NCBI GenBank assembly: GCA_012840355.1
Contig: DULN01000006.1
Location: forward strand, 5,514 to 69,513
From: Clostridiales bacterium
Lineage (GTDB): Bacteria > Bacillota > Clostridia > Oscillospirales > CAG-272
DNA: 64,000 bases
Reading direction: 5' to 3'
Positions 2,765 through 42,518 of the stretch are shown in pieces. Position 1 is the first letter of the stretch; every line of letters starts with the position of its first letter. The position numbers and the translations under genes are program-made. Below the pieces are notes generated by a model. It made no database searches and was not told the origin of the DNA. It saw only the letters and a list, made by a program, of their open reading frames with translations.

Positions 2765-3889
2765 TTAGCCAACATTTTTACAGCCTAATATTAAGCATTT
2801 GCAGAACAAAATTCCAAAGCAATGTTTATCACATGGACAGTTGGGCATATCTGGATTGGGGCATGAGCAATTATCTTCGCTGCAATCGCAGTTTTCGCCG
2901 CACGTGCAATCGTTACCGCAGCCGCATTTTTGCTCATCATTGCCGCAATCGCAGTCGGTGCAGTCGCCGCCGCAGTCGCCGCATTCACTGCATGGGCAAT
3001 TGGAGCTGCCGCCGTTGCCGCAATCGCAGTCGGTGCAGTCGCCATCACACTCGCTGCAGCCATCGCACGGGCAATTGGAGCCGCCGCCATCACCACAACC
3101 GCATTCAGGGCAATCGCCGTCGCACTCGTCGCAAACGTCACATGGGCAGTTGGGCTGCTCGTCGCCGCCTTCGCCGCAGCCGCAGTCGGGGCAATCGCAG
3201 TCGTCGCATTCTTCACATGGGCAGGTAGGCTCTTCTACGCTTTGTTCGCAGCCCGGGCATTTGCATTCTGGGCAGTTGCCATTGCACTCGCAGCCATCGC
3301 CGGTGCAACCATCGCACGTGCACTTGGGCGGCTCAGGCTTGTTCGGTGTGCCCCCGCCGCCGCCACCGCCGGCGGGAGCCCAGCTTAAGCTAGGGGCGGG
3401 CATGTCGGGTTTTTCTATGAACTCATATGCGCCGATGTCGATTGTGCCGCTGACACGCGTGCCATTTTTTAAGTCGTAGCCTAATAGCACGTTGTGAGCG
3501 GTAGAAAATGAACGTGCATTACTGGTGTAATCGTCGTTATTTCCTTTGTCAACTAAAACCGAGCTGCTCTTTGGCTCAAAGCTGCCCGAGTTTTTGAACA
3601 GATCTTTATGATTGGACTTGGAAATGTCTATGTTATTATAGGTATCGTCGAAAAGAATAAAGTCTTGTGATTGCTCGCCTATTGCATTATTGTAAAACGC
3701 GTAAGTGCCGAGGACTTCTTCGCTTTTGCTTTCCCTATAGACCTGATCGCCGCCGTCATTGCCCCAAATTACATTGTTGTAAAATGCCAGATTGATATTG
3801 TCGTCGACAGTTATATGTACGCCGGCACCTGCTTTGCCTTTTTCTTCGGATATACCGTTGTAAACAATAGTGTTGTTTATAAGTGTTGT
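2765..3889 (-). pseudogene. surface beta-helix (Pmp / choice-of-anchor-like) protein, 3' fragment with Cys-rich repeat tail
   Basis: Hand translation shows this frame is open from 3889 down to the stop at 2765. The ORF track shows only 2765-3490 because no ATG/GTG/TTG occurs upstream. It reads NNTIVYNGISEEKGKAGAGVHITVDDNINLAFYNNVIWGN...IDIGAYEF, then a G7/Pro linker, then ~185 aa with ~51 Cys. It joins the upstream fragment only if one copy of the 13-bp duplication is removed. Confidence 0.75.
2927..3229 (-). repeat. four tandem 72-81-bp coding repeats (7-Cys units)
   Basis: Units are PTCPCEECDDCDCPDCGCGEGGDEQ / PNCPCDVCDECDGDCPECGCGDGGGS / NCPCDGCSECDGDCTDCDCGNGGSS / NCPCSECGDCGGDCTDCDCGNDEQK. 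The DNA units are also visibly similar, e.g. GCAATCGCAGTCGGTGCAGTCGCC occurs twice on the + strand. Confidence 0.85.
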
Positions 3890-4538
3890 TTATAATACGG
3901 GCATTTGCTGCGCCGGCGATATAAATTGCGCCGCCGGATATAGCCGCGTTATTGTAAGCAATAAGGTTATTTGTGATATATACGTCGCTCGAAGTGTCAA
4001 TATAAACTCCGGCGCCGTTTATTGCTTCGTTATTTTCAATGCGGGAATGGGATATTATAGCGGGACCGGCGACATTGATTGTCCCATCGCTTTCGGGGGC
4101 TTTGTTCCCATGAATGTAACAGGACAGTAGCGAGCCGTTGTCTAAATTAATGGCGCCGCCTGTTACTATCGAGTTTTCCAGCACGCCGCCAGATTCAAGC
4201 TCGGCAATGCTACCGCTTCCGTCGGATGTGGACTCTATTGTCACACCGCTAACGACTCCGCCGGCAATCTTAACAACAACTCCACTGACTTTTAAAACCG
4301 TGGGCGATATGAATTCCCAAGGCTCGATAATGCCGTTTTTGTCACGGTCAACTTTGATTCTGCCGCCTTCATAAACCTCGTTGCCGGAAAAGCTACCGTA
4401 AAGGTATACCCCTTCTTTGATTTCAAGCGGTTTTGTTATGTTGTAATCCCCGCCCTTAAGGAATACCTTTACCTTTTCGCCTGGCTGCGGCTCATAGCCA
4501 AGCGCCGCTGAAACCACTGTAGCCGAAACTACCACCAT
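3756..4538 (-). pseudogene. surface beta-helix protein, 5' fragment (N-terminally truncated, frameshifted tail)
   Basis: Part of ORF 3756-4667. Parallel beta-helix repeats (IENNEAINGAGVYIDTSSDVYITNNLIAYNNAAISGGAIYIAGAANARIINNT), then nonsense tail YKQHYCLQ... after the 13-bp duplication. No signal peptide and no SD. Sequence above ~4497 is antisense to the neighbouring SBP remnant. Confidence 0.65.
3869..3894. repeat. perfect 13-bp tandem duplication (frameshifting)
   Basis: AGTGTTGTTTATA at 3869-3881 and again at 3882-3894 (+ strand). Removing one copy changes the upstream frame (codon tops = 2 mod 3) to the downstream frame (1 mod 3). Confidence 0.9.
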
Positions 4539-5826
4539 ACTCGACACTTTGCCGAAAGTGGACCTAAAAGGGCTAACGGTTCGCGCGCTGGCACGAAAAA
4601 ACTCGTGGTGGCAGCTTACAGAGATTAGCGCTACCGAGCTAAACGGAGAAGTTATCAACGACGCCATTTACAACCGCAACCTGAAGCTTGAGTCAACTTG
4701 CAATATAAAGTTTTTGACGGAACATGTCGACTCCGTCGGAAATACAATCCGCGCGCTCATAATGGCAAATGATAGCACATATGAATTTATTCTTGCGAAT
4801 ATGAACGAGAGTGCAACGCTTGCGGGCGACGGCATGCTTATTAATCTTTACAGCATTCCGACGCTTGATATGTCAAACCCTGCGTGGGACCAAAACGCCA
4901 ATGATTATTTCAGCATAGCAGGCAAGCTTTATTATGGGGTATCCGACATATCGCTTGGCAAAAACGAAGCGATTTGGTGCTACATGTTCAACAAACGGCT
5001 AATAAAGGATTTTGCGCTTGATGATCCGTACCAGCTAGTTCGAGAGGGCAAATGGACATTTGACATATCGCACCAAATGATGACCGTTGCAACCGCCGAC
5101 CTTAATGGAGATGGCAAAATAACCGCCGACGCTGACCGGTATGGTTTAGCGACACACGAGGTAAACTACTATGCGCTGCTAATTGCCGGCGGCGAGCCAC
5201 TTGCGCGCGCAGGCAGCGAAGGGGTTCCGGTGATTACTGCCGGCAGCGACAGGTTTATATCGGTCTATGATAAAATTGTTTTGCTGTTTACCCAAAACGA
5301 CATGACGCTAATCGAGTATGAGGGCAAGGCATTTATGGCTGGCCGCGCGCTGCTCTGCGGGCAGGTTTTAGCATGCGTGCGCCTATTTAGGCCGATGGAA
5401 GACGACTTTGGCATAATCCCCTTGCCCAAATATGACGAGCTGCAAAAGCAGTATTACTCTTATGTAATACCTTACGATATTTTTTCAGCTTCGGTGCCTG
5501 TTACGGCAAATGATTTAGAAGTATCGGGCTATGTGCTGCAGGCACTCGCCATCCTTTCGGATTATTATATCACGCCGGCTTATTATGATATTACGATTAC
5601 TGGCAAAGGGTTGCGCGACGAGGAGTCGGCAGAGATGCTTGACATAATACTTGATAGTACCGTCTACGACCTGGCGCGCATGTATGATTGGGGCGCGGTA
5701 GCGTCTAGCATAGTGGCGAATATGATGTCGGGCAAAGATTTCATGTCGTTCTATAAAAAACGCGAGAAAGCGGCAAACTCTGCCTTGCAAAAAACCGTCG
5801 ATGCTTTTATTTCAAGCGCTACATAG
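4498..5826 (+). pseudogene. solute-binding lipoprotein paralogue 2, 5'-truncated (no signal peptide or lipobox)
   Basis: ORF 4549-5826. The frame is open from 4498, just after an in-frame TAG at 4495-4497. It begins in the low-complexity linker (SAAETTVAETTTILDTLPKVDLKG), then has family motifs INDAIYNRN, EGKWTFD, MEDDFGIIPLPKY. About 30-50 N-terminal residues, including the signal peptide and lipobox, are missing relative to the paralogues. Confidence 0.7.
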
Positions 5827-6090: not shown

Positions 6091-7482
6091 ATGTCACGGA
6101 AACTAATAGCGCTCGTACTTGCCTTTATTATGGCATTCGCCGTGTTCGCCCTTGCCGGCTGTTCAGGCGGCGAGTCGTCGTCGGGCGATGCCGAAACAAG
6201 TGCGGGCAACGAACCGTCGGAGACAACCCCGGTCGAATCCACTGAAGAGGAAGCAACAGTTGAAGAAGAAACAACCGCAGCTGAAGAAACACCTTCCGCA
6301 AGCTCCGAGCCGAAAGAGGAAACTGCGGGCCCGGAATTCGGCTATATAATTGAGGAGTACTCTGAGTATCATTACACCACTTTCGTCTGCCCCTATACTG
6401 ACGGCAACGGCGTGGTTGGCGGTAGCGCCGCTAACGGCTATTTCGACCCGGCAACCGACGAAATGGCGGCGTTCATCGCGCAGAATCCCGAGTGGTATAA
6501 GGACACAAAGCTCATGGAGAGCTGGGATATTGCGAGCGCACCGTTCGGCGACCGCATCGGCGTTATGATGGCGGCAGAAACGCCTTTCATCACCGACCCG
6601 GTTAACGTCAACGGCCTTATGGTCTACAAGACTTTTGAGATCAAAGACCTTAGCGACGACATTCATTACTCGCTCAATGTATTTTACGATAACACGGTTT
6701 ACATTTATATAAACGGCAAGCCATACTTTATAAATGACGCCAACTGCGGCGTTGGCGACTGGAACGGCGACTATGAGCCGATAAACTACAATATCGACGA
6801 CCAGCCGCTCACGCTTAAGGACTTCCTCGTTGAAGGCACAAACTACATAGCGATCTCGATTAAGAACTGCTGGGGCGGGCGCGAGCTTGACCTTTCGCTT
6901 ACTTACGAGAAATCGTCCACGAAGGCTTCGCTCAGGTTCTTTGACCCGGGCGCTGAGTGGCATTACAAAGTATTCTATTGCCCGTACACCGACGGTAACG
7001 GCGAAATCGACGGCAGCGCTGCCGGCGGTTATTACGATGAAGCCACCGACGAGATGGCTAAGTTCATAGCCGAAAATCCCAACTTCACGACCGACGCCGA
7101 GATGCTCAAGTCCTGGCCGACCGCCAAGTCGCCTTTTAGCGCGGTGGCAGAAGAGATCGGCTGGACCGGCAGCAACCACGGCCTCATTCTCTACAGGACT
7201 ATCGAGATCACCGACGTTGAGAAGCTCAAGACAGCCGACTACTTCGACTGGTATTGCTTCTACGACAACACGATCCATGTATACCTCAACGGCACCGAGA
7301 TATTTGTCGACGACGGTAACTGCGTAGCTCAGGACTGGAACGGCGGACTTACCCATTACGAGCTCGACACCGCCACTGTGGCTGAGCTGTTCAAACAGGG
7401 CGAGAACCACCTCGTTGTCACCATCAAAGACGCGTGGGGCGGCCGTGAGTTCAACGCCGGCTTCTCCGCCGAGTGGAAGTAA
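6091..7482 (+). CDS. secreted lipoprotein with acidic linker and two tandem ~190-aa repeats, function unknown
   Basis: ORF 6076-7482. ATG 6091 after GGAGG. Signal peptide ...VFALAGC. E/T/S-rich linker. Two homologous halves: (Y/W)HY..F.CPYTDGNG...GSAA.GY.D.ATDEMA.FIA.NP ... FYDNT(V/I).(I/V)Y(I/L)NG ... KN/DCWGGRE. Confidence 0.75.
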   Translation: MSRKLIALVLAFIMAFAVFALAGCSGGESSSGDAETSAGNEPSETTPVESTEEEATVEEETTAAEETPSASSEPKEETAGPEFGYIIEEYSEYHYTTFVCPYTDGNGVVGGSAANGYFDPATDEMAAFIAQNPEWYKDTKLMESWDIASAPFGDRIGVMMAAETPFITDPVNVNGLMVYKTFEIKDLSDDIHYSLNVFYDNTVYIYINGKPYFINDANCGVGDWNGDYEPINYNIDDQPLTLKDFLVEGTNYIAISIKNCWGGRELDLSLTYEKSSTKASLRFFDPGAEWHYKVFYCPYTDGNGEIDGSAAGGYYDEATDEMAKFIAENPNFTTDAEMLKSWPTAKSPFSAVAEEIGWTGSNHGLILYRTIEITDVEKLKTADYFDWYCFYDNTIHVYLNGTEIFVDDGNCVAQDWNGGLTHYELDTATVAELFKQGENHLVVTIKDAWGGREFNAGFSAEWK

Positions 7483-9596: not shown

Positions 9597-12161
9597 TTAT
9601 GCTTCTATACACAACGTATCGTATACGCATACGGGGCTGACAAACATAATTTTGCCGCCTTCAATGTCAAACGGCGCCTTTTCGCCGCTGTTGTAAGCCG
9701 CTTTCGCAGCAAAACCGCCTGGGAGTATGAAGGCATTTAAATTTAGTTTTCCCTTTAGTACCGTGAGGACAATCTTATCAATTCCGATTTGCACTGTTCC
9801 CCAAGCGCCGTCGACGGACCAAAAACACATAAACGGCCGCTCTTTTGTAACCGGGTCAAACCCGATCTCGCCTTTAGTCATGTCAAACCTAAAGCCTGAG
9901 AACGCGGCAAGCAGCGCAAAGCTTGCCATCGAGCGCGCATAACTTGCCCCGCACTCAATTTCCGAATAGGGATTGCGCTTTTTGCCGTCGTACCGGTCGC
10001 GGATTGCCCTCACTACCTCGGTTCCTTCATCGACGAGTCCCTCCTGAATCATCAGCCCCGCTGCCGCATACTCAAATCCTGTCATGCACTCTTCGGCGTA
10101 CGGGATTGGGATTTGCGGCTTGTACTCGCCTTGCGGCCACTCGCAAATTACAACGCCGCGCTCGTCGTTTAGAGCGAACACCCTGCAGGGGTTAAACACT
10201 TCGCGCATGGATTTGAAATTTATCTCATATAGCGAGCGCGCTGCGGTCTTGCGATGATTCTTGTCAAATATATCTCCAATCCCAATCAATGTGGCGTGCC
10301 ACTGCGCGACGAGCTGGTCGATTTCGCAGCCGCAGCCATATTGGTATTTTATTTCGTTCTTCTCGCTGTTCCAGTAGTAGCTGTAAATACTGGGGTCATA
10401 TTCCGCAAAGCGGTCGAGCAGGGATTTGTTGGACACGTCAATTTTCTGAATGTAGTAGCGCCCGTTATAAAGCTCGTTTTCTACATGTTTTTTGCCTTTT
10501 TCTAAAATCACGCGGTATTCTTCGGCTTTATCATGCTCACCAAGGTAGTCGGCGATTTCGGCGCAGGCGGCGAGAGCGGCGAGATAGAAACCCGTGAGCC
10601 ACGAGCTTGAGCCGAAAAGTTCGACGTCCAGCGTGTGGTGCTGCCGTCCCGTCAGCACTCCGGATTTGTCAGGGTCCCATAAATCGCGGTTATCGGGGCT
10701 CCACGCATACTCCAGCGTCTTTTTGACAGTGCCCCAATATTTACGCAGCCATGCGTCGTCGCCCGAAAGTTTCCACTCGCGGTAGAAGCGGAGGATGCTG
10801 CCCATCTGCCCGTCGACGCAAGCCCTGAAGTTCCACTTCCCGCTGCCGAGCGGCAGCATGGTGCGGAACATCATCTCCCCGTTTTCTTTGACGTTGTTTT
10901 CGTAATTGATTTCTAGAATATTCCGTGCAAGCCGCGGGAACAGGAAGGGAAGGGAATACTGATACTGCCATACATGGTCGCAAGTTCCCTCACACGAGCC
11001 GCTGTTTGCGTTTGTGCCTTCAAAAGCCCAAAACTCGCCGTTTTCAAGCCTAAGGCAGGTAGCGCTTTTAAGGACCGCTAGGTTTGAAGCGGCGGCGTCG
11101 ACGCATTCAGGCGGAAGCGAGCTCCCGAAGAGCGCATTGCTAAATTTCATCGATTCACAGTAAAGCGTATCCCAATTTTCAAAGCAGTACCGCTGTACAT
11201 CTATTGCGCTATTAAACCGCCGGCAGTACTCGTGTTTCCACACCGGCCTTTGATTGTCCCAATACTTTACGAAGTTCGGGAAGTACCACGTCAGCAAAAA
11301 GCGGATCTTTTTGCTTTCGCCGGGCATGAGCCTGACATGTGCGGCGAGTGTCGCCATATCTCCAGTGTCAATCTTGCCGTTGAGGTTATTGTTATCATAA
11401 TGGCGGTTTTTCAGCTTGCCGGGCGACGAAAACTCGCGCCAGAAGGTCACAAGGTCGTCAAACCACCCGCTACGGTACCAGTATTCCTGATATGAAACAT
11501 CCAGCCAGTTGGTCGACACCAAAAGCTCGCCATACTCGGGTTGCTCGGGCGTGTAGTTTTTGCTTGAAAGAAGGATAGAAGACGTACTGCCGTCCGAAAG
11601 GAACTTGTCAAACCCGCCGTCGGAAGTCCGGAACGGATTCCCTACTGAAAAAGCAAGCGTGTAGTCGGTTTCTTCGCTAAAGGTGTTTTTTATATTCCAC
11701 TCGAAAAATGCCGCTGGCAATGAGCTGTTGTCCTCGTCGCCCGGGATGAAAGGGTTAAAGGCGAGAAGCTCAATATCTGCGGGCATTTTTTCAGCGCTGT
11801 ATGTTATGTTTGCGAAAGGGAAAAATCCGCGGAATGCGACGTCGCTAAAGTGCGGGATCCCGGCGAGCGTGGTACGGTTCGGGCCATGTCCATAGCCCCA
11901 GGAATGGTGGTGCGCGGCGTATGGCACGCCCATGAGGTCCTTTGTCAAATCTCCGTGCAAAACCCGCGCGTCTAAAACTTTTCCACTCCGCTCGGCTTTG
12001 ATTGCAAAATGGGTGTATTCGTTTACTGAAAACTTATTAGCCCTACCGGTTAACTCCCAGTCGACAAGCGCGCCTATACCGGAAATCCCAATCCCGCCTG
12101 TCCCTATGCCCGAGAGCGGGAAGACAATTTCCCTCAAATACTCTCCCCTGTATGTTTTCAT
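9597..12161 (-). CDS. GH116-family beta-glucosidase / GBA2-type glucosylceramidase-like enzyme
   Basis: 854 aa. GGAGGG 7 nt upstream. N-terminal IVFPLSGIGTGGIGISG...VDWEL typical of the GH116 N-domain, followed by a long C-terminal catalytic region. Cytoplasmic. Directly downstream of SBP 12246-13745 on the same strand. Confidence 0.8.
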   Translation of the reverse strand: MKTYRGEYLREIVFPLSGIGTGGIGISGIGALVDWELTGRANKFSVNEYTHFAIKAERSGKVLDARVLHGDLTKDLMGVPYAAHHHSWGYGHGPNRTTLAGIPHFSDVAFRGFFPFANITYSAEKMPADIELLAFNPFIPGDEDNSSLPAAFFEWNIKNTFSEETDYTLAFSVGNPFRTSDGGFDKFLSDGSTSSILLSSKNYTPEQPEYGELLVSTNWLDVSYQEYWYRSGWFDDLVTFWREFSSPGKLKNRHYDNNNLNGKIDTGDMATLAAHVRLMPGESKKIRFLLTWYFPNFVKYWDNQRPVWKHEYCRRFNSAIDVQRYCFENWDTLYCESMKFSNALFGSSLPPECVDAAASNLAVLKSATCLRLENGEFWAFEGTNANSGSCEGTCDHVWQYQYSLPFLFPRLARNILEINYENNVKENGEMMFRTMLPLGSGKWNFRACVDGQMGSILRFYREWKLSGDDAWLRKYWGTVKKTLEYAWSPDNRDLWDPDKSGVLTGRQHHTLDVELFGSSSWLTGFYLAALAACAEIADYLGEHDKAEEYRVILEKGKKHVENELYNGRYYIQKIDVSNKSLLDRFAEYDPSIYSYYWNSEKNEIKYQYGCGCEIDQLVAQWHATLIGIGDIFDKNHRKTAARSLYEINFKSMREVFNPCRVFALNDERGVVICEWPQGEYKPQIPIPYAEECMTGFEYAAAGLMIQEGLVDEGTEVVRAIRDRYDGKKRNPYSEIECGASYARSMASFALLAAFSGFRFDMTKGEIGFDPVTKERPFMCFWSVDGAWGTVQIGIDKIVLTVLKGKLNLNAFILPGGFAAKAAYNSGEKAPFDIEGGKIMFVSPVCVYDTLCIEA

Positions 12162-12245: not shown

Positions 12246-13745
12246 TTACGCGTTTTGGTTGCTGTAGAAGTTTTCAAAATACTCGATGACCGATTCGTAA
12301 TGCTTCATTATGGACTTTTCGTATTTTGCCCAATATGATGCGACGTTGGGGTTGTTTTGGTCAACAAGGTTTTGTATGATGAATGCCGCGCCGCTCCATG
12401 CGTCGTAGACATAGCCGAAATCAAACACCCGGCTGTTTACAATCATGTCGAGCATCGCAATCGATTCTTCGTCGCGGGTGCCTTTGAACTTCAGGGCGAC
12501 GTCATAGTAAGCGGGTACGACTTTTTTATAGCTTTCAGCGCAAAGCGCCTCGGTGATAACGCCGATAAGCTCGGTATTCGAAACGGTTATCGGCACAGCC
12601 ATTACCTGATGGCTGCCGTCGACCATCGTGTAATATTTCGACTGGTTTTCGTCCCATTTCGGGTAGGGCAAAATCGCGTAATCGTCCTCAAGGTCGCGGA
12701 AATATCCGAGCGCGTCTCCTATGTTGGCGTTAGCGAAGACAGAAAGCCCGCGCGCAAACATGTCGCGGCCGTACATGTGCCTAAATGCCCCGTCGACGTT
12801 GGTGTAATTTCGGTCCATGCGAATGCCTTCGTAGGTGGTAAACCCTTCGAGAATCTTTTGCACGATGCTCGCAGTCTTATCGAGGTTGAGCGAGAATTCC
12901 AGCTTTCCTTCATTATTTTTTCTATAAATCGGGTTGTCAAATGCCCAGAGGTACGCGCATACATTAGACATGCAGTCTGATGTTAAGCCGTAAAGATCGT
13001 CGTTGTCAACCTGGCTGTTGTGGTTTTGGTCGACGTAAATGTCTTTAGAAAGGCTGATAAGATAGTCGATAGTCCAGCTTCCGTCGTTTACAATCTTATA
13101 TAGGTCCGGGATGCCGTAATCCGCCCCAAGCTTTTTATTATAGAAAACGCAGTACGTCTTGCCAATTGCGGATAAAATGAAGTCCCCGATTGCGGTAATG
13201 CAAACGCCGTTGTATGTAAGGTCGTTGATGTTGGAGTCGGACCACCAAGGCTTTTCGAAATTCACTTTAGGGATATCGTACCAGTTTAAAAAGTAACCGT
13301 TAGGCACGATTTGGCCAAGGACCACCACATGCCAGCACACGAGGTCAATCGCATCCTCGTTTGCGGTGACGGTATTGATTATAATCCCGGTTTCGCGGTG
13401 CCCGGTATCGTTTACAACGGTAATTTTGCAGTTAAAGCGTTCTTCAACCGTGCGGTTGCGCGTGTAAATCGCGTCGTCGACCACATCGCCAGAGCTTTCT
13501 TCCATAAAGTAGTGGTCGGTCATATTGTTGCAAGTCGCGATACGGAATTTATACCCGTCAAAATTGTAGCTGCCCAGCTCGTCGTCAATTTTTTCACGGC
13601 TGTTTAACCCCTCGCTTTCGCTTTGTAGCTCGGCAGTACTGGTGGTGTCTTCCGGCAGCGTCGATTTACCCGAAGACGCATTGCTGCAAGCGCCGAAGGC
13701 TAATACGGCGACGAGCAATAATAAAGATATTAGCCTTTTTGACAC
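12246..13745 (-). CDS. solute-binding lipoprotein paralogue 3
   Basis: GTG 13745 after AAAGGGG. Lipobox FGAC. Motifs VDDAIYTRN, DGSWTID, LEDDYAILPYPKW...YYT. Confidence 0.8.
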   Translation of the reverse strand: MSKRLISLLLLVAVLAFGACSNASSGKSTLPEDTTSTAELQSESEGLNSREKIDDELGSYNFDGYKFRIATCNNMTDHYFMEESSGDVVDDAIYTRNRTVEERFNCKITVVNDTGHRETGIIINTVTANEDAIDLVCWHVVVLGQIVPNGYFLNWYDIPKVNFEKPWWSDSNINDLTYNGVCITAIGDFILSAIGKTYCVFYNKKLGADYGIPDLYKIVNDGSWTIDYLISLSKDIYVDQNHNSQVDNDDLYGLTSDCMSNVCAYLWAFDNPIYRKNNEGKLEFSLNLDKTASIVQKILEGFTTYEGIRMDRNYTNVDGAFRHMYGRDMFARGLSVFANANIGDALGYFRDLEDDYAILPYPKWDENQSKYYTMVDGSHQVMAVPITVSNTELIGVITEALCAESYKKVVPAYYDVALKFKGTRDEESIAMLDMIVNSRVFDFGYVYDAWSGAAFIIQNLVDQNNPNVASYWAKYEKSIMKHYESVIEYFENFYSNQNA

Positions 13746-13844: not shown

Positions 13845-13991
13845 CAATTCTGCCCAATTTTGGCATACATTTTCTTTTACGGAATATTAAGATAATTAAC
13901 AGTGTGTTAAAAAACGGTTCTTTCGTAGTTAACAATGAAATTTTATGCTAGCTGTTGCAATATTTCTCAAAATACAGCGGAGGATGTGTGT

Positions 13992-15485
13992 ATGATGCTG
14001 AGCCCGAGACGGTTTATAGCGTTTGCTTTAGCGTTTTTGACTGCGCTATTAGCTGCTTCATGCGGCGGCGCAGCAAACAGCCCAGTATCAAAGGTTGACA
14101 CCGAAAATGCTGCTGATGCGACTTCGGGGGAGATTGCGGAAACGAATAAGATAAACTGGGAATCGGCAAACCTGCCGAAGAAAGACTTTGATGGCAGGGA
14201 ATTTGTTGTCCTTACTCGTGAGCCTCCTAACAAGCAGCTTACGTGGTATATGGTCGTGCCCGAAGAGCTAAATGGCGAGTCTCTAAACGACGCGATGTAC
14301 AACCGCAACGCGAAAATAGGCGAAATATACAACACATCAATTGTTTCGCATTATTCGACGGCTATAAGGACCGACGCTAGCAATGCGATAGCTTCGGGCG
14401 ATACCACATTCAGCGCTGTATTCGGCAGGATTTCAGATACATACCCCCTTGCGCAGGAAGGGCAGTTTTTAAATTTCCATAACCTGCCTTATACAAACCT
14501 TGAAGCCCCGTGGTGGGACCAGTCTATAGTTCGTGACCTTACGTATCGCGGCGCTTTATATAATCTCACAGGCGATATTTCTCCGGCAACGAACGTGCGC
14601 GTGTACACAATGGTATTTAACAAGGACATGTGTAAGAGCTTGAATCTCGACTACCCATATCAGTATGTGTACGACGGCACATGGACAATTGATAGGTTTA
14701 ATCAATACATAACAGACGTAAACACCGACCTTAACGGCGACTCGGTGATGGACTATAATGACCGCTGGGGGTTCTTCAGCCAGGACGGGTGCTCCTGGAT
14801 GATGTATTTCGCCGGCGGCGGCCAAGTGGTTGTAAAAGACCCGAGCGGCGAGCTTGTTGTCGCTTACAATACCGACCGCAATATACAGCTCGCGATTAAA
14901 GCGCTTGAGATTGCTATTGATAAATCGAAAACTCTGATGGCGAACCATTATGTCGCTAATAACGGCGGGAACTGGGCCACGGCTACCGCGTGGTTTGCAA
15001 ACGGCGGGGCGCTGTTCCGCTCGTCGGTTCTTGAGCCGATACCTCGCGATTTGCGCTCGCTTGAGGTTAACTTCGGCATAGTCCCGTTCCCGAAGCTCGA
15101 CGAAAAACAGATCCAGTATTACACGCTGCCCGAAGAAACCTCAATAATGTTCAGCGTGCCGGTGACCGCCGACCCTGAATTCGCATCGCTTATCCTCGAG
15201 TCGCTTGCGGCTGAGTCGGTGTCTACCATATCCCCCGCGTTTTATGACATCTGCCTTAACGGCAAAGTCGTGCGCGACGAAGAGTCGAAAGGAATGCTTG
15301 ACATTATATTTTCAAACAAGATATTCGACATCGGGTATATCACTAACATCGGAAATTTCAGGACAATGCTTGTAAACCTTGAAAAGAGCGCAAGCACCGA
15401 CGTTGCTTCAACATTTGCAAAAACGCTCAAGTCGGCAGAAACTACGCTGCAAAAACTCTGCGAGAACTTTGAAAAGATAGGCTAA
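13992..15485 (+). CDS. solute-binding lipoprotein paralogue 4
   Basis: ORF 13935-15485. ATG 13992 after GGAGG. Signal peptide ...LLAASC. Motifs LNDAMYNRN, DGTWTID, NFGIVPFPKL...YYT. Confidence 0.8.
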   Translation: MMLSPRRFIAFALAFLTALLAASCGGAANSPVSKVDTENAADATSGEIAETNKINWESANLPKKDFDGREFVVLTREPPNKQLTWYMVVPEELNGESLNDAMYNRNAKIGEIYNTSIVSHYSTAIRTDASNAIASGDTTFSAVFGRISDTYPLAQEGQFLNFHNLPYTNLEAPWWDQSIVRDLTYRGALYNLTGDISPATNVRVYTMVFNKDMCKSLNLDYPYQYVYDGTWTIDRFNQYITDVNTDLNGDSVMDYNDRWGFFSQDGCSWMMYFAGGGQVVVKDPSGELVVAYNTDRNIQLAIKALEIAIDKSKTLMANHYVANNGGNWATATAWFANGGALFRSSVLEPIPRDLRSLEVNFGIVPFPKLDEKQIQYYTLPEETSIMFSVPVTADPEFASLILESLAAESVSTISPAFYDICLNGKVVRDEESKGMLDIIFSNKIFDIGYITNIGNFRTMLVNLEKSASTDVASTFAKTLKSAETTLQKLCENFEKIG

Positions 15486-19196: not shown

Positions 19197-20681
19197 ATGG
19201 GCAAGAAAACTATAGCCTTTTTGCTTGCGCTTATACTTTTGGTTGTTTTCGTTTTCTCGTCTTGCGCAGGGGACAATAAGACCAGCCAGACGGCAGACAC
19301 GACCGCCGTACAGGACACCACGGAAGCTGAGGAAGAGGAAAGATACATATATCCACAGCTTGATTTGGGCGGCGAAGACTTCACTCTCCTCGGCACAACG
19401 ACGACATGGGGCTTTTATGAGTATCTTGACCGCGATACAATGACCGGCGAAGTCCTCGACGATGCTATTTATAATCGGAACCGCTTTATTGAGAAAACTT
19501 TCAACCTTAAAATCGCTGTCGCCGAAGAGATAATAGATAACGTGTATAGTAAAATTAACACCGTTATCAAGGCGGGAGAAGACGCGTACGACGCGATATT
19601 CTGCCCGGGCTGGACGGGTGACACGACATATCTCGGCTCATATGCTGCTCAGCATATGTTTTATGATTTGTCAAAGATTTCCGAAATCAACTTTGACGGC
19701 AACTGGTGGAACCAAAAGCTACGCACCGAAGGGGCTTTAGGCAAAGACGGCGCGTTGTTTTTTGCAGCGTGCGATATAAATATATTCACCCTTCAGGGTA
19801 CATGGTGCCTCTTCTTTAATGAAAAATTGTTTGAGGACCTAAACCTTGAGCGGCCTTATAAACTTGTAAAAGACGGGACATGGACGTTTGACAAGTTCGC
19901 GGAGCTTGTCAAAGCCGGAGCAAACCTCAACGGCGACGACAGCTTCTCGTGGAACGCTAACGGGAAATGCATTTACGGCTATACTTCGTTCAATGCAGGT
20001 ACTCTAACGTTGCTGCTCGGCTCGGGCGAGCGGTTTGTCAGCAAGGACGACCAAGGCTATCCGGTGCTTGCGATTGAAACCCAGCGCTTCTATGACGTTT
20101 GCACGAAAGTAGCCGACCTGCTCTCCACGCAAGGGTATTATCTGAACGCTAACGAGTCGGTCGACAGCCTGTTCCATTATGAAAACATCTTTATGAACGG
20201 CAGGGCGCTTTTCACCTGCGCCGAGCTGAAAGCCGCCTCGCGCCTGAGGACGATGGAAGACCCGTACGGCATAGTGCCGGCGCCAAAATTTGAGGAGGCC
20301 CAGAAAGAATACTACTCGGCAAAAACCAGGCAGGCGTTCCTATTGGTTATCCCGGTGACAAACCCCGACCCCAATACCACCGGCGCGGTAATGGACGCGA
20401 TGGCGTATGTAAGCTACAGGGACGTCACGCCGATATTCTATGACGTGACGCTCTCGCAGAAGGGGCTGCGCAACGAGGAATCAATAGAGATGCTGAAGTT
20501 AATCCGCGACACGCAGTATTTTGACGCCGGCATCATCTACGGATGGACATCGGCGCTCAACGGCGCGATCATATCCGCGGTGGACGGCGGCAACAGCAGT
20601 GTGGCTTCGATTATTGAAAGGTACAAAAAACAGATTGACTCGAGCATTCAGAAAACCATGGACGCGTTTTACGGGGAGTAA
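19197..20681 (+). CDS. solute-binding lipoprotein paralogue 5
   Basis: SD GGGAGG. Lipobox FSSC. Motifs LDDAIYNRN, DGTWTFD, MEDPYGIVPAPKF...YYS. Confidence 0.8.
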   Translation: MGKKTIAFLLALILLVVFVFSSCAGDNKTSQTADTTAVQDTTEAEEEERYIYPQLDLGGEDFTLLGTTTTWGFYEYLDRDTMTGEVLDDAIYNRNRFIEKTFNLKIAVAEEIIDNVYSKINTVIKAGEDAYDAIFCPGWTGDTTYLGSYAAQHMFYDLSKISEINFDGNWWNQKLRTEGALGKDGALFFAACDINIFTLQGTWCLFFNEKLFEDLNLERPYKLVKDGTWTFDKFAELVKAGANLNGDDSFSWNANGKCIYGYTSFNAGTLTLLLGSGERFVSKDDQGYPVLAIETQRFYDVCTKVADLLSTQGYYLNANESVDSLFHYENIFMNGRALFTCAELKAASRLRTMEDPYGIVPAPKFEEAQKEYYSAKTRQAFLLVIPVTNPDPNTTGAVMDAMAYVSYRDVTPIFYDVTLSQKGLRNEESIEMLKLIRDTQYFDAGIIYGWTSALNGAIISAVDGGNSSVASIIERYKKQIDSSIQKTMDAFYGE

Positions 20682-30534: not shown

Positions 30535-32010
30535 ATGTGGCGCAAATTATCGGTAATGCTGGCTTTTATATTAGAGCTAGTCCTTTTGCTCGTTTCATGC
30601 GGCAGTGGGGAGGTTCAAAGTAAAACCCCTGTAGAAAATCCAAATACGGTCGACTCAGCCGAGACGACAGCCGACGAGTTCGGATATGTTGCCCCGAATG
30701 TTGAAAAAGAGGATTTCGGGGGCAGGAAGTTTAACATAATTTATCCACAATGGTCGCTTTACAACCACTACTATTTCGCCACCGAGTATAACGGCGAAGT
30801 GGTAAACGACGCGATTTACGACCGTGCGCGCTATGTCGAAGAGATGCTAAACATTAAGTTTGAGTACATAACCCGCGGGTATATTGAGACTATCCTGCCG
30901 GAAGTGCAGAAAGTGGTGCGCGCGGGCGACCCCGGCTATGATTTGGCGCTGACCCATTGTGCTACATCGCTTTTGAGCTACGTCACCGATAAGCTGGTTT
31001 TGAACTGGAATGATATCCCCGGCGCCGATTTAAGCATGCTTTATTGGAACCAGTCGGTGCGCGAAAGTTTTGAGGTTTATGGAATGTTGCCGTTTATGTC
31101 AAGCGATTATATATTGCCCGACGTAAACTCGATTTTCTTCAACAAAGGCATAATCGACGACATGAAGCTCGAAGACCCATACGAGCTTGTGCTTTCCGGC
31201 AAATGGACATGGGATAAGCTGAAGGCAATGGCAACGGAGGCTACAAAAGACTTAAACGGCAACAGCAAGATGGACGACGAGGACCAATACGGTTTTGTCG
31301 GCGAACGCGGCTGGCAGTTTACATCCGCACTTATATCTTGCAACCAGTTCTTATTCGGTAAAGGGCCGGATAATCTCCCCGCAATATTGTGCGACAACGA
31401 GAAGACGCAAAATGTGCTCGATTTAATTTGCGGGATTATCCACAACAAGAGTATAGCCTACACATGGGCGTATTCCTCGGCATATGACCCCAACCAAGGC
31501 GGCAAGCCTCCGGTGGATTTTAGGAGCAACCGCTCGCTGTTTTACCTGACTCCGCTAAGCCTTGCAACCACTTTCCGCGACGCGGAGGTCGATTATGGCA
31601 TAATTCCCCTGCCAAAATACGATGAGGCGCAGGATAATTATCTGACCCTCAACTGGGCGGGCTTTATGTGCGTGCCGGCGTCGGTCTCCGACCCGCGGCT
31701 TGTGGGGCTGGTGTCCGAGCTACTCGCCGCAGAAAGCTCACGCACGGTTATACCCGCATTCTATGACGTGCTGCTCGGCGAAAAGATTGCGCGCGACCCT
31801 ATTTCGAAAAAGATGCTCGATATAATATTTGAATGGAACGTCTACGACCTCGGCGTCAACCTCGGGTATTACGGCTTATTTAGCTCGCAGATAGATAGTT
31901 CAAAGCCCAACAACTCGAGGTACTTAAGGGCACAAAGGAATACAATCGAAAAAGTCATATCAGATTATGTCGAAGGCTGCAAAGAATACATGGAGCTTAC
32001 GTCAAAATAA
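30535..32010 (+). CDS. solute-binding lipoprotein paralogue 6
   Basis: SD GAAGGGG. Lipobox LVSC. Motifs VNDAIYDRA, SGKWTWD, VDYGIIPLPKY...YLT. Confidence 0.8.
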   Translation: MWRKLSVMLAFILELVLLLVSCGSGEVQSKTPVENPNTVDSAETTADEFGYVAPNVEKEDFGGRKFNIIYPQWSLYNHYYFATEYNGEVVNDAIYDRARYVEEMLNIKFEYITRGYIETILPEVQKVVRAGDPGYDLALTHCATSLLSYVTDKLVLNWNDIPGADLSMLYWNQSVRESFEVYGMLPFMSSDYILPDVNSIFFNKGIIDDMKLEDPYELVLSGKWTWDKLKAMATEATKDLNGNSKMDDEDQYGFVGERGWQFTSALISCNQFLFGKGPDNLPAILCDNEKTQNVLDLICGIIHNKSIAYTWAYSSAYDPNQGGKPPVDFRSNRSLFYLTPLSLATTFRDAEVDYGIIPLPKYDEAQDNYLTLNWAGFMCVPASVSDPRLVGLVSELLAAESSRTVIPAFYDVLLGEKIARDPISKKMLDIIFEWNVYDLGVNLGYYGLFSSQIDSSKPNNSRYLRAQRNTIEKVISDYVEGCKEYMELTSK

Positions 32011-36983: not shown

Positions 36984-37012
36984 GCCGCCCAAATCGGGCG
37001 GCCCGTTTTTTT
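36984..37012. terminator. bidirectional intrinsic terminator
   Basis: GCCGCCC (36984-36990) / GGGCGGC (36996-37002) followed by a T7 run. It overlaps the stop of the convergent SBP gene. Confidence 0.65.
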
Positions 37013-38492
37013 AGTCCTCAAGCCTGCTGTACATTTCAATTATATCCTGCAAGCCTTTTTCCGCGCCTTTTTGTATGCGCGCCCATTCGGATGCGACGTC
37101 GTATTTTTTGCTTCCAAGCAAAGTCCTGCAGATAAGCCCGGCGTTGTTTAGCGCGTAGTTATAAGCGTAAACAAAGTCTGTCTTCGCCGAGTTTTTAATC
37201 AAATCGATTATAATCCCAGCGGTGTTGTCGCGCGTGTATTTGACTTTCAGTGCCATCTCATAGAATGCCGGTATAACAGTCCGATAGTTTTGCGCGCAAA
37301 TCGCTTCTAGCGTCGCGCTCGCTTCATCGAATATCTGGCATGTTACCGGAATGCAGTATACCGTAGCGCTGTCGTGAACAAGCGCACCATATTCTTTTTG
37401 GGACTCGTTGAATTTTGGGAAAGGTATTATCCCATACTCTTCTTTCATTTCCCTCAAGGATAGGCAGGACACAAAGCGGTTTATTAAAAACAGCGTGCCG
37501 CCATTTGCAAAACGCGTTCGCATCAGCGTTTCATCAGAGGTGACGTAGACGCCTTCGTTGTTATAGTAAAGGTCATAAAGGGTTTGCATATAGCTTACAA
37601 AATAGTCGGTCAAAACATTGAGCGAGGGGATTCCGTCACTGTCTCGAGTGCACATCACATTGCCCGCCGTATATGTAAAATGATCGGGTTCGGTGCTGGT
37701 GCGTGCCATAAAGCCGTATAAATCGTTCTCGTCACGCTTACTGTCACCGTTTATATCCCGGTATGCAAGCTTGCAGTATTTCGATAGCTCATCGTAGGTC
37801 CATTTCCCGTCAAGCACAAGTTTGTAAATGTTGTCCGCCGGCGTCCCTAGGTCTTCCATCATGTTTTTGTTAAAGAAAATGCAGCTCATATTGTAAATAC
37901 TGGACAGCGAAATGTCGCCGTTTAAAAAGAAAGTTTTAGCTTTTCCAATCTTTAGCTCGTTTATGTAGTCCTCCCACCACCACGGCTGTGAAAGTTCAAT
38001 ATATTGGCTTTTGTTCAGGTTCATGTACATGCCCTCGAGCGCTTGGGGCAGGACAATCCACTGCGCGCCGCTGACAAGGTCAAAGTCGTCGGAACCGGAG
38101 GTTATCGAGTTGCGCAGCACGTTCCCATGGTCGGCAGGCGCGCCGTCGAATGTGGCAACGATTTTTATGTTGAGCCTTTCCTCCACCATGCGGTTGCGAT
38201 TATAAACCGCGTCGTCGACAATGTCGCCGGAAAGTTCAGGGTATACTTCCTGAACGTTAATATCCCCGGAGCGGCTAGTTATGCGTATGGAGATACCGCC
38301 GAAATCGAGGTCGTCAGGCAGCGAGTCGGGCGTGAGTTCGCGCGGGATTTCGGAAGTTTCGTCAATATCGGATGCCATTTCTTTTATTGAGCCGTTTTTA
38401 GCCGTTTCCGATGTACCCGCGCATGCCGTAAATGTAACAGTTAGAGCTATCAAAAGCGACAGAAAATTTAAAATACCCATGCGCCTTAACAT
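37011..38492 (-). CDS. solute-binding lipoprotein paralogue 7
   Basis: SD AAGGAGG. Lipobox FTAC. Motifs VDDAVYNRN, DGKWTYD, MKEEYGIIPFPKF. Confidence 0.8.
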   Translation of the reverse strand: MLRRMGILNFLSLLIALTVTFTACAGTSETAKNGSIKEMASDIDETSEIPRELTPDSLPDDLDFGGISIRITSRSGDINVQEVYPELSGDIVDDAVYNRNRMVEERLNIKIVATFDGAPADHGNVLRNSITSGSDDFDLVSGAQWIVLPQALEGMYMNLNKSQYIELSQPWWWEDYINELKIGKAKTFFLNGDISLSSIYNMSCIFFNKNMMEDLGTPADNIYKLVLDGKWTYDELSKYCKLAYRDINGDSKRDENDLYGFMARTSTEPDHFTYTAGNVMCTRDSDGIPSLNVLTDYFVSYMQTLYDLYYNNEGVYVTSDETLMRTRFANGGTLFLINRFVSCLSLREMKEEYGIIPFPKFNESQKEYGALVHDSATVYCIPVTCQIFDEASATLEAICAQNYRTVIPAFYEMALKVKYTRDNTAGIIIDLIKNSAKTDFVYAYNYALNNAGLICRTLLGSKKYDVASEWARIQKGAEKGLQDIIEMYSRLED

Positions 38493-40423: not shown

Positions 40424-40523
40424 GCGCGTGGCTCAGGATTATTTTTTGTTTTGGCTTGATATTATTTCCAGCGCAAGCTATTATAATAACAATGGCTTAA
40501 AAATTAAATGGAGGAAGCCCATA

Positions 40524-42518
40524 ATGAAGCATGTCATATACATAAAACCCGGAGCGGCAGGCGGCGACGGCACAAAAAATGAGCCAATCGGCAACATTTT
40601 CGAGGCTCAAAAGAAAGTGCGGGAGCTGCTAGCGGCCCCCGATACAGAAAGCGTCACCGTGAAGATTGCGCCGGGCGAGTATAATATAGTCTCGCCGATA
40701 GAGTTTGACTCTAGCGACTCGGGAAAGCCGGGCAGCCCAGTCGTTTGGGAGTGCGAAGGGGGGCGCGCGCTGATTCATGCGTCGATAGCTGTTGGGAAAG
40801 GGCAAATAACGAGGGTTTTGCCGGACGACCCGCTTTATAGCAGGCTGCCTTGCCCGGAGAAGACGCTGCAGTTTGACCTTGGCAAGCTTGGGGTTGCGCC
40901 TGAGGTGTATTCAGAAGGCTGCCATGGGTTTGGCATGGCTTACTCGGGCAAAAACCCCATGCGGGACGGCTCGGATATCGAGCTTTTTGTAGACGGCATG
41001 CCGTTTATCCGCGCGCGTTATCCGAACGATGGTTTTGTAGAGGTTGAGCGGTCGTCGGACAGGGAGAGCGCGGTCTTCGGCTACAGTGACCCTCGTCCTG
41101 AAAGCTGGGCATCGCTTGAGGGCGTGCGGCTGCATGGATACTTTTATTTCGATTGGGCCGACGCCTCGGTAGCGCTTGGCGAGCTTGATAAAGAAAACAA
41201 AACAATAACTCTTGCCGAGATGCCGCACTATGGTATAAAAAACGGCCAGCGCTATTACTATTACAATATCCCTGAAGAGCTTGATATGCCCGGTGAGTGG
41301 TACCTTGACGCTTCAACTGGACGCGCGTATTTTCTACCGCCTGAAAACTTTGGCGAGGTACGTGTTACAGTTGCAAAACACCGGCTGTTACGGGCAAACG
41401 GCGCGTCGAATATTGTTTTCCGTAACCTTGCATTCGGCTATACTCGAGCCGACGCGATAGATATAACCGGCGGCGAAAACCTCATTTTCGAAGGCTGTGA
41501 AATCTACAACATTGGTAAAAAAGCGGTGCTGATAGGGCACGGCGGCAATACGCCGTTCGGCGTGCTCGGAGACGGCGGTAAAAACCACCTCTTTACCGGC
41601 TGCCGCGTGCATAGCTGCGGGTTTGGCGGCTTTGATATAAGGGCTGGTGACCGCAACACTCTCGAGCCGACCGGCATAACGATTGAGCGCTGCGATATTC
41701 ACGGCTGCTCGCGCATCGGCAAAACCTACTGCTTCGGGATAGCGCTAAACGCGGTGGGCGCGCGGGTGGCTCATAACAAACTGCACGACTCACCGCACAG
41801 CGTGCTATTTTTCTCGGGCAACGATAACATAATCGAGTACAACGAGGTATACGACGTGCTGCGAGAGTCGGACGATGCCTCGGCGTTTTATACCGGCAGG
41901 GACTACACCTCACAGGGGCATATTATAAGGTATAACTTCTTCCACGATTTAGCCAGCGATGCGCATGTTGGGGTCGGGATTTTCGGCGTGTATGCCGATG
42001 ACAACTCGGCTAATGTCACTTTCTACGGCAACGTATTCCTCAACGTCCAATCCGCTTGCCACCTGCACGGCGGGCATGATATAACATTTGAGAACAACCT
42101 AATTGTCGGAGGTAGGCCGGAATCGAAGTTCGCGGTGTCGCTGAGCCAATATTGGTTCCCCGGCTCGCTCAAAGAGGGCGGCGAGCATATTAGGCGGCTT
42201 GAGGCTACGCCGTGGCAAAACGAGGTGTGGAAAAAGAAATACCCGAAAATAGCCGAATACCTATCGTGGGACCCCGAAACAGAGCAGCGCTTTCCGCATT
42301 ATGCGAGGATAGTAAATAATGTGATAATAAACCACAAGCATATAGACATTAACTTCGACCATACAAACCCGAAATACAAAAACACGGTCGAAGGCAACGT
42401 CTGGATGTCGGTCGACCCCGCGATGCAAACTAAAGAACATCTACCCGAACTTATGAAAATGGCAGCCGAGGCTTGCCCTGGGTTCAAAGAGCTTCCGCTT
42501 GACGAAATTTTAGGCTAA
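40524..42518 (+). CDS. right-handed parallel beta-helix repeat protein, cytoplasmic (putative glycan lyase/hydrolase)
   Basis: ORF 40428-42518. ATG 40524 after TGGAGGA. Repeated beta-helix turns (NLIFEGCEIYNIG, ITIERCDIHGC, NIIEYNEVYDV, IIRYNFFHDL, ITFENNLIVG). No signal peptide. Confidence 0.7.
   Translation: MKHVIYIKPGAAGGDGTKNEPIGNIFEAQKKVRELLAAPDTESVTVKIAPGEYNIVSPIEFDSSDSGKPGSPVVWECEGGRALIHASIAVGKGQITRVLPDDPLYSRLPCPEKTLQFDLGKLGVAPEVYSEGCHGFGMAYSGKNPMRDGSDIELFVDGMPFIRARYPNDGFVEVERSSDRESAVFGYSDPRPESWASLEGVRLHGYFYFDWADASVALGELDKENKTITLAEMPHYGIKNGQRYYYYNIPEELDMPGEWYLDASTGRAYFLPPENFGEVRVTVAKHRLLRANGASNIVFRNLAFGYTRADAIDITGGENLIFEGCEIYNIGKKAVLIGHGGNTPFGVLGDGGKNHLFTGCRVHSCGFGGFDIRAGDRNTLEPTGITIERCDIHGCSRIGKTYCFGIALNAVGARVAHNKLHDSPHSVLFFSGNDNIIEYNEVYDVLRESDDASAFYTGRDYTSQGHIIRYNFFHDLASDAHVGVGIFGVYADDNSANVTFYGNVFLNVQSACHLHGGHDITFENNLIVGGRPESKFAVSLSQYWFPGSLKEGGEHIRRLEATPWQNEVWKKKYPKIAEYLSWDPETEQRFPHYARIVNNVIINHKHIDINFDHTNPKYKNTVEGNVWMSVDPAMQTKEHLPELMKMAAEACPGFKELPLDEILG

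Follow-up and report, generated by a model that had tools for sequence, protein, structure and literature searches.

The question raised by this locus is whether an extremely cysteine-rich tail on a beta-helix protein is a genuine protein module and, if so, what it might do. The locus lies in the window, by which we mean the whole stretch of 64,000 nucleotides analysed here, from contig DULN01000006.1 (assembly GCA_012840355.1) of a Clostridiales bacterium. At 2768-3322, the minus strand encodes 185 amino acids, 51 of them cysteines (27.6%, by translation and count), compared with about 2% cysteine on average in the long open reading frames (ORFs) of the window. An earlier note, made from the letters alone, had described this tail with the same count and had suggested that it replaces the anchor module of a surface protein and binds metal; translation bears out the count. 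We find that the tail is a real C-terminal module of a 648-amino-acid (aa) protein of an uncultured biogas-fermenter Clostridiales (Bacillota) bacterium, and that the copy of the gene in the window is a pseudogene.

The intact protein, P0010, equals the reconstructed undamaged gene except at two residues of the body (D/G and G/S). It surfaced in a search seeded with P0003, a diverged homologue described below, heads a 90%-identity cluster (n = 17 sequences) and lies, in contig L101, in the same gene neighbourhood as the window copy. Its layout comprises an N-terminus (MNSSITRKRLNVLLALLLSLAILLYAIPAVAAS) that reads by eye as signal-peptide-like, the beta-helix, a linker with a G7 run and prolines, the Cys region and a hydrophobic end. 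Four further alleles (P0016, P0017, P0019 and P0023) are likewise full length, all five measuring 648 or 652 aa and carrying four repeat units. The earlier note had held that the absence of any intact homologue would favour runaway repeat expansion in a dead gene; the five full-length alleles, together with a diverged homologue that carries an analogous tail, show otherwise. The view that every copy is broken (window, L001, L002, L070 and L003) was dropped after the intact alleles turned up.

The window copy is a pseudogene because of a 672-bp deletion at its 5′ end, a 13-bp duplication that shifts the frame and the loss of 1 bp close to the stop, all defined against the near-identical contigs L001, L002, L070 and L101 (99+% identity). 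The large deletion, with its junction at 4507-4509, was located by BLAST against L002 and L070, and L101 has the intact arrangement; it took codons 1-58 with the signal peptide, the intergenic promoter region and codons 1-38 of a divergent gene resembling those of sugar-binding proteins (SBPs). The duplication (TATAAACAACACT twice, minus strand 3869-3894) is absent from L001, L002, L070 and L101. Its shift of frame separates the tail ORF (2765-3490, minus strand, 241 aa, with the 185-aa Cys-rich stretch at its end) from most of the body, which ORF 3756-4667 holds in another frame. The earlier statement that the tail follows a beta-helix body thus applies to the distal part (3419-3868, minus strand, with IDIGAYEF at 3419-3442), which is in frame with the tail, and fails for the proximal part (3895-4509, minus strand, from …AALGYEPQPGEK), which is not. 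Deleting one copy of TATAAACAACACT in silico yields …ARIINNTIVYNG… and an unbroken reading frame. At 2775-2779, a run of five A on the coding minus strand (T5 on the plus strand) has lost 1 bp relative to the A6 of L001, L002, L070, L101 and L102, which shifts the frame into an early stop at 2765-2767. The ending quoted in the earlier note is therefore present as read but stems from this deletion: the window has …GCKNVG before the stop, where other alleles have …GCKKCWLTKWMRFILGLFF. The window allele, P0012 (NCBI HHW24460.1, 'Clostridiales bacterium'), recurs on seven contigs from independent assemblies (samples DRR066655-58 of a biogas-fermenter study), and the lesions are therefore real and not the errors of one assembly. 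Moreover, the tail is identical in L103, an independent biogas-fermenter metagenome assembly. The divergent SBP-like gene (ORF 4549-5826, plus strand) is probably a pseudogene in the window as well, because it is 477 aa long in L101 and L002 and the deletion beheads the window copy, removing its promoter and the 38 codons for the signal peptide and lipobox region.

Following the tail along the minus strand from the linker IEKPDMPAPSLSWAPAGGGGGGGTPNKPEPPK (3323-3418; a G7 run, Pro-rich, a layout shared with P0003), translation gives an N-terminal Cys cluster CTCDGCTGDGCECNGNCPECKCPGCEQSVEE with nine cysteines (3230-3322), four tandem 7-Cys units and a C-terminal Cys cluster CGCGNDCTCGENCDCSEDNCSCPNPDMPNCPCDK (2825-2926). 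The units are PTCPCEECDDCDCPDCGCGEGGDEQ (unit 1, 3155-3229), PNCPCDVCDECDGDCPECGCGDGGGS (unit 2, 3077-3154), NCPCDGCSECDGDCTDCDCGNGGSS (unit 3, 3002-3076) and NCPCSECGDCGGDCTDCDCGNDEQK (unit 4, 2927-3001), the last codon of unit 4 being AAA, which is TAA in a common nonsense allele. The four units quoted in the earlier note and the Cys clusters flanking them are thus all in place. Its unit formula, CPC-x2-C-x2-C-x3-C-x2-C-x-C, describes units 2-4, which share the spacing CxC-x2-C-x2-C-x3-C-x2-C-x-C, and not unit 1, a variant with x1 in place of x3 (CxC-x2-C-x2-C-x-C-x2-C-x-C). Inside the array, one cysteine follows another at a distance of 2-4 residue positions, and at 2938-3133 TRF detects a tandem repeat with a period of 75 bp (2.6 copies, 79% matches). 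Of the 217 residues that follow IDIGAYEF, 51 are Cys, 37 Gly, 28 Asp, 22 Pro and 18 Glu, and hydrophobic residues are nearly nil ahead of the closing segment (2768-2824, minus strand), which reads HCFGILFCKCLILGCKNVG in its truncated window form and HCFGILFCKCLILGCKKCWLTKWMRFILGLFF when complete. The G+C fraction of the tail region is 0.60-0.64, against 0.49 for the whole window.

A GC-rich array of this kind could be a functionless expansion, in which replication slippage or unequal recombination multiplied a 75-bp repeat at the 3′ terminus of a gene that the cell can spare, and the cysteines are a by-product of the repeat codons (TGC/GAC/GGC). The openness of the DNA in several frames speaks for it. 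The earlier note had the tail free of stops in five of six frames; this is true of the core (2930-3216), which fits an expansion, whereas over 2768-3322 only two frames are open and the other four contain 1, 3, 3 and 13 stops. The five overlapping ORFs that the note mentioned are indeed listed at the tail, at 131-241 aa. An Ala-rich or Ser/Pro/Gln-rich alternative frame as the real one was rejected, given that the Cys frame continues the body in the intact alleles and carries the synonymous changes. Units 2-4 share about 76-79% of their DNA sequence and keep all 21 cysteines. Three of the seven Cys codons vary among them, exclusively by synonymous TGC/TGT changes, while of the 15 non-Cys codons that vary, 11 alter the amino acid; counted pairwise, synonymous and non-synonymous differences are 6 and 0 at Cys codons versus 11 and 29 elsewhere (per-codon Fisher p = 0.043). 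The synonymous-only changes at cysteines fix the reading frame and indicate that the Cys residues are under purifying selection. Such conservation is at odds with a functionless expansion, as are the intact alleles, open over 648 codons up to a terminator hairpin, and the independent Cys-rich repeat at the same position of P0003.

The instability of the array, in turn, is what an expansion would predict. Alleles with one, three, four and five units were found, and unit number changes through unequal recombination between the 75-bp units. P0018 (639 aa) has five units and has lost the hydrophobic end to a 64-bp deletion; L104 carries the pseudogene allele of the window in a form that has five units and 58 cysteines. 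In P0014 and P0015 (581 and 585 aa; seven and five contigs, and L070 too), an AAA-to-TAA change creates a stop after …GNDEQ and cuts off the last Cys cluster along with the hydrophobic end. P0020, P0022 and P0025 (500-532 aa) combine the same stop with a 5′ deletion, and P0020 and P0025 have three units. L001 is fragmented: it has a deletion at the 5′ end and a 1-bp frameshift unlike that of the window, and an in-frame deletion of 309 bp has reduced its array to a single unit. L002 is fragmented by three deletions. Among the recorded contigs, loss-of-function alleles are more numerous than intact ones, with nonsense, frameshift or deletion alleles on most contigs, which also fits a functionless expansion. 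The unit number in any short-read assembly, the window included, is uncertain because four short-read assemblies from the same fermenter samples (L105-L108) end inside the Cys repeat, near position 3930-4080 of the locus, and sister assemblies give four units (L103) or five (L104). An expansion would also be in keeping with tails that cannot be aligned between two lineages, with the lack of a predicted fold and with the occurrence of the module in two lineages only. Weighing the selection on cysteines and the intact alleles against these observations, we consider a functionless expansion unlikely.

The second lineage is represented by P0003, from a sediment metagenome (locus L003), which is 51% identical in the body and has the same overall layout. 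Its body ends in IDIGAYES and is followed by a G-run, a Pro/Glu-rich linker and three near-identical 24-aa units, GCPCKDGCSEECDCPKECGCECCH, each with nine cysteines (period 72 bp, 95% matches), and then by more Cys clusters. Between the Cys region and the hydrophobic end, about 18 tandem 15-bp repeats encode GGGN(H/Q) (L003 10528-10796). An in-frame TAA at L003 8973-8975, with an ATG directly after it, lies between the ORF for the signal peptide and the body. A change from TCA to TAA would explain the stop; a product restarted from this ATG would have no signal peptide. P0003 sits in a gene neighbourhood unlike that of the window. It is the sole diverged homologue with a Cys tail and came from a protein search, not from the scans of loci around relatives of the body; outside the species of the window, those scans (66 genome and 31 metagenome loci) revealed no additional Cys-rich tail. 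On present sequence data, the module appears confined to two lineages.

The position of the tail is informative. The earlier note had placed it where beta-helix proteins with this motif usually carry an anchor or sorting module, and the relatives agree. After DIGAYEC, L004 (44% identity) has Ig-like and SLH domains, and after DxGAYE, the Bacteroidota relatives P0007, P0009 and P0011 have the C-terminal domain of the type IX secretion system (T9SS; PF18962). These anchors at the same position support the view that the tail replaces an anchor module. The L004 gene (6004-8762), from a metagenome-assembled genome based on long reads, is split by a frameshift.

The same arrangement is compatible with a structural role: the linker and Cys repeats might form a wall-spanning spacer, perhaps cross-linked by disulfides or to the envelope, with the hydrophobic end keeping the beta-helix domain at the membrane and the cysteines serving structure. 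Such a stalk would sit where the relatives have their SLH or T9SS anchors, and it would make sense of the hydrophobic C-terminal segment kept in both lineages, for which AlphaFold predicts a helix in P0003 (residues 612-632). Repeat number also typically varies in the spacers of surface proteins. However, the odd number of cysteines per unit, seven in the species of the window and nine in P0003, is a poor match for repeat domains in which every cysteine is paired, and disulfides would not be expected to last in an anoxic fermenter or sediment. Gram-positive wall spacers are usually rich in Pro, Thr, Ser and Gly, which sets them apart from a tail with 28% Cys. Furthermore, the cysteines are conserved and the residues between them are free to vary, and the common alleles P0014, P0015 and P0018 do without the hydrophobic end. 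A stalk therefore strikes us as improbable, to the same degree as a functionless expansion, and it stands first in our ordering of alternatives, before the expansion, an iron-sulfur (Fe-S) or redox module and a substrate for cysteine modification.

The tail does not match any catalogued family. The earlier note had not recognised it as a described domain and had named a significant match to an existing Cys-rich family as evidence to the contrary; none was found in Pfam, NCBIfam, the sequences of the PDB or an exhaustive HMMER search. Against Pfam, no family matched the window tail at E <= 1, the metallothionein families (PF00131, PF02069, PF02068, PF01439 and others) included, and at E <= 10 neither the isolated units nor the P0003 tail matched anything. 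Models of sorting and anchor domains in Pfam and NCBIfam (LPXTG, SLH, T9SS C-terminal domain, PEP-CTERM, GlyGly-CTERM and others) found nothing at E <= 10 on the ancestral C-terminal end or the P0003 tail. A phmmer search of PDB sequences gave chance matches only (E > 1), exhaustive HMMER with the tail ORF gave none among 1.84 billion representatives, and a word-index search with the tail had P0001, a collapsed allele from the species of the window, as its sole match. These negatives are weaker than they look, since P0010, though from the same species, was missed by the exhaustive HMMER, word-index and body protein searches; composition filters and clustering at 50% probably hide relatives. 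AlphaFold gave no confident fold for the tail alone (mean pLDDT, the predicted local distance difference test score, 42) or for the P0003 tail with an alignment (pLDDT 25-38). Rfam models found nothing in the window, and a literature search by accession returned no record.

What, then, could the cysteines be for? We tentatively read the tail, at somewhat less than an even chance, as an extracellular, acidic, metallothionein-like module that binds metal through thiolates. The Cys core of the intact protein (about 165 aa) has 47 Cys (28%), 27 Gly, no aromatic and three aliphatic residues, and 43 Asp and Glu against two basic residues; with its high proportion of cysteines in CxC and CxxC and its lack of aromatics, it has the composition by which metallothioneins are operationally recognised; it is, however, part of a 648-aa protein, whereas metallothioneins in the operational sense are small and free-standing. 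According to the proposed mechanism, the protein of an intact allele would be exported into an anoxic habitat, where the thiolates of the Cys region, exposed outside the cell, would stay reduced and gather soft metal ions (Zn, Cd, Cu(I), Ni or Co) into clusters like those of metallothioneins. A single 7-Cys unit would make up one binding module, and capacity would accordingly rise with the number of units. The protein may be held at the membrane by its hydrophobic end, and the role may be the capture of trace metals or detoxification at the cell surface. The metal-binding reading is plausible in view of the composition, the odd number of cysteines per unit, the tandem units with Gly spacers, the selection on cysteines, the His/Gly repeat of P0003, the anoxic habitats and a fungal parallel. 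The lack of an AlphaFold fold for either tail weakly fits a fold that depends on metal.

The fungal parallel is provided by the long copper-thioneins CnMT1 and CnMT2 of Cryptococcus neoformans and TmMT of Tremella mesenterica, in which tandem units of the Neurospora crassa type, with seven cysteines and separated by spacers, each form a Cu5 cluster; the same source mentions modular metallothioneins of ciliates (PMC4755600). Fungal proteins and tail share arrays of 7-Cys units, Cys-free Gly-rich spacers, a lack of aromatics and an apparent amplification of units, and they are of similar size (122-257 aa, compared with about 165-185 aa with 47-51 Cys). In contrast to the free-standing, cytosolic and eukaryotic copper-thioneins, the tail would be an exported C-terminal domain of a bacterial beta-helix protein. 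Its strongly acidic CxC-x2-C-x2-C-x3-C-x2-C-x-C also differs from the fungal [CXC]-X5-[CXC]-X3-[CXC]-X2-C; the N. crassa-type pattern does not occur in the tail, only the number of cysteines per unit and the layout of the spacers agree, and no sequence homology was detected. The bacterial metallothioneins SmtA/BmtA and PmtA (PF02069) resemble the tail in being bacterial and Cys-rich candidate metal binders, and PmtA is reported at the cell surface of Pseudomonas aeruginosa (PMC11237414). They are, however, non-repetitive and small (about 55-80 aa), and His and aromatic residues form part of their zinc-finger-like fold; the tail matches no Pfam family. Closest in overall design is the engineered surface display of metallothioneins and phytochelatins, which likewise combines an exported carrier, a poly-Cys segment rich in Glu, Asp or Gly and a possible tether; the engineered constructs are artificial, whereas the tail is natural and its function putative (PMC7458392). 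The GGGN(H/Q) repeat of P0003 is reminiscent of the core that binds Cu(II) and Zn(II) in the prion octarepeat PHGGGWGQ, where His-Gly-Gly-Gly is the copper- and zinc-binding element (PMC10249355, PMC2663819), but it has no Trp or Pro, about half of its units have Gln for His, and it is absent from the species of the window.

Other uses of cysteine fit less well. The string CxxCxxCxxxC(P) in units 2-4 could bind Fe-S clusters or buffer thiol redox at the surface: CDVCDECDGDCP of unit 2 fits the ferredoxin motif CxxCxxCxxxCP, which occurs in that unit only, and in units 3 and 4, which are spaced identically, a Thr takes the position of the Pro. Yet no Fer4-type Pfam family matched even at E <= 10, the hydrophobic residues typical of the ferredoxin fold are missing, and the P0003 unit is spaced differently. 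In addition, the signal peptide contains RKR and no twin-arginine motif, and a folded, cofactor-loaded domain would therefore not be expected to be exported. We regard an Fe-S or redox module as very unlikely. The least likely of the alternatives, to which we give hardly any weight, is a substrate of post-translational cysteine modification, for example by thioether cross-links that radical SAM enzymes introduce, as in Cys-rich repeat peptides. The one point in its favour is that the sequence is Cys-rich and repetitive. Instead of a small precursor peptide, the module forms the end of an exported protein of 648 aa, and radical SAM or other maturase families were not found in the 30 larger ORFs of the window or in the called genes beside P0003.

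Several observations weigh against metal binding by the tail. Its Cys spacing is unlike every pattern compared, and acidic residues are much more abundant in the Cys region than is usual for metallothioneins. At E <= 10, the only Pfam match, on the ancestral C-terminal end, was PF02068 with E = 5.3 and 7.9 bits, well below its cut-off of 31.8 bits. The window and P0003 tails show no significant likeness (BLASTP E = 0.52 after composition adjustment); the common descent that we infer for the Cys module of the two lineages is therefore drawn from its position and architecture. Most contigs of the species carry loss-of-function alleles and P0003 has its TAA, which means that the protein is often dispensable. 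No metal-related gene was found among the 30 window ORFs scanned or the called genes beside P0003. Finally, the signal peptide was recognised by eye and the membrane tether by hydropathy, the Kyte-Doolittle maximum of the C-terminal segment being 1.87 over a window of 15 aa and a borderline 1.52 over 19 aa.

The carrier of the module is better defined. In the intact allele, the mature body has 385 aa and a single cysteine. The AlphaFold model of P0003 consists of short strands at residues 10-290 (pLDDT 75-93), and all 50 Foldseek matches listed from the PDB are parallel beta-helix proteins (best E = 1.4e-3), with PL6 lyases, mannuronan epimerases, pectate lyases and tailspikes at the top. The body is thus predicted to be a right-handed parallel beta-helix. 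A precomputed table lists PF13229 and, weakly, PF05048 for P0012, and NCBI names P0013 a beta-helix repeat protein; despite that PF13229 entry, hmmscan of the reconstructed body (window 3419-4509) found no Pfam family at E <= 1. Proteins of the P0010 type share a signal peptide, a beta-helix and a lineage-specific C-terminal module with the choice-of-anchor Q or DxGAYE proteins (NF041518). They differ in that residues 362-412, ending in DIGAYEF, score 14.3 bits (E = 0.037) with that model, below its cut-off of 25 bits, and in that their C-terminal module is no catalogued sorting domain. The most conserved stretch of the body, DRDKNGIIEPWE at about 4310-4345 on the minus strand, is common to the Bacteroidota and Clostridia relatives and supplied the search pattern NGIIE[PS]WE; to the eye, it looks like a calcium loop of the EF-hand or dockerin type. 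A second, unrelated beta-helix protein of 696 aa (PF13229) is encoded at 40428-42518 on the plus strand and has no Cys tail and, it seems, no signal peptide.

The neighbours of the gene in the window serve carbohydrate utilisation and include SBP-like lipoproteins, GH116, GH127, a heparinase-like protein, a melibiase and ABC transporters. Given the different neighbourhood of P0003, this context offers no functional clue. A hairpin at 2654-2691 (fold -23.9 kcal/mol, z = -5.9), terminator-like and followed by a U-rich tract, parts the gene from a convergent SBP gene; a simple terminator scan did not report it. Seven ORFs of about 500 aa have no Pfam match (1121-2623, 4549-5826, 12246-13745, 13935-15485, 19197-20681, 30535-32010 and 37011-38492). 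The N-terminus of the first is of the lipoprotein type (…LVSCAEK), and the second, truncated at its 5′ end, is homologous to it; the two look like members of an expanded family of sugar-binding proteins. Contigs 99.4-99.9% identical to the window differ from it by deletions of 125-444 bp in coding regions, at 10842-11285, 5547-5761, 6435-6559 and 1609-1752. In L001, the loss of 444 bp splits the GH116 gene and a further 215 bp are missing; L002 lacks 125 bp and 144 bp. Such small coding deletions are either unusually frequent between strains or an assembly artefact.

The module is genuine, and its setting, exported, fused to a larger protein and bacterial, looks unprecedented for a metallothionein-like Cys repeat. 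The reach of the finding is limited by the occurrence in two lineages, the many broken alleles and the dead copy in the window. Should it bind no metal, the tail would still be a clear case of a repetitive, Cys-rich sequence maintained by selection in a protein that an anaerobic bacterium of the Firmicutes exports; aerobic members of this group tend to keep cysteine out of exported proteins (PMC2823432). A bolder version of the metal-binding reading, which we hold to be doubtful, sees a natural surface-displayed metallothionein, a high-capacity thiolate sponge that would take up or detoxify trace metals in sulfidic digesters, its capacity being tuned as 7-Cys units are gained and lost. If true, it would be the first exported, tandem-modular metallothionein domain of bacteria and a natural counterpart of engineered surface display, and the natural alleles with one to five units would allow a direct test of capacity against unit number. 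Were the tail to bind metal, it would be a bacterial, exported version of the modular 7-Cys design, known to date from fungi, and it would be fused to a surface protein at the site of a wall anchor; this would represent a new type of extracellular metal handling in anaerobes and could provide a scaffold for metal recovery.

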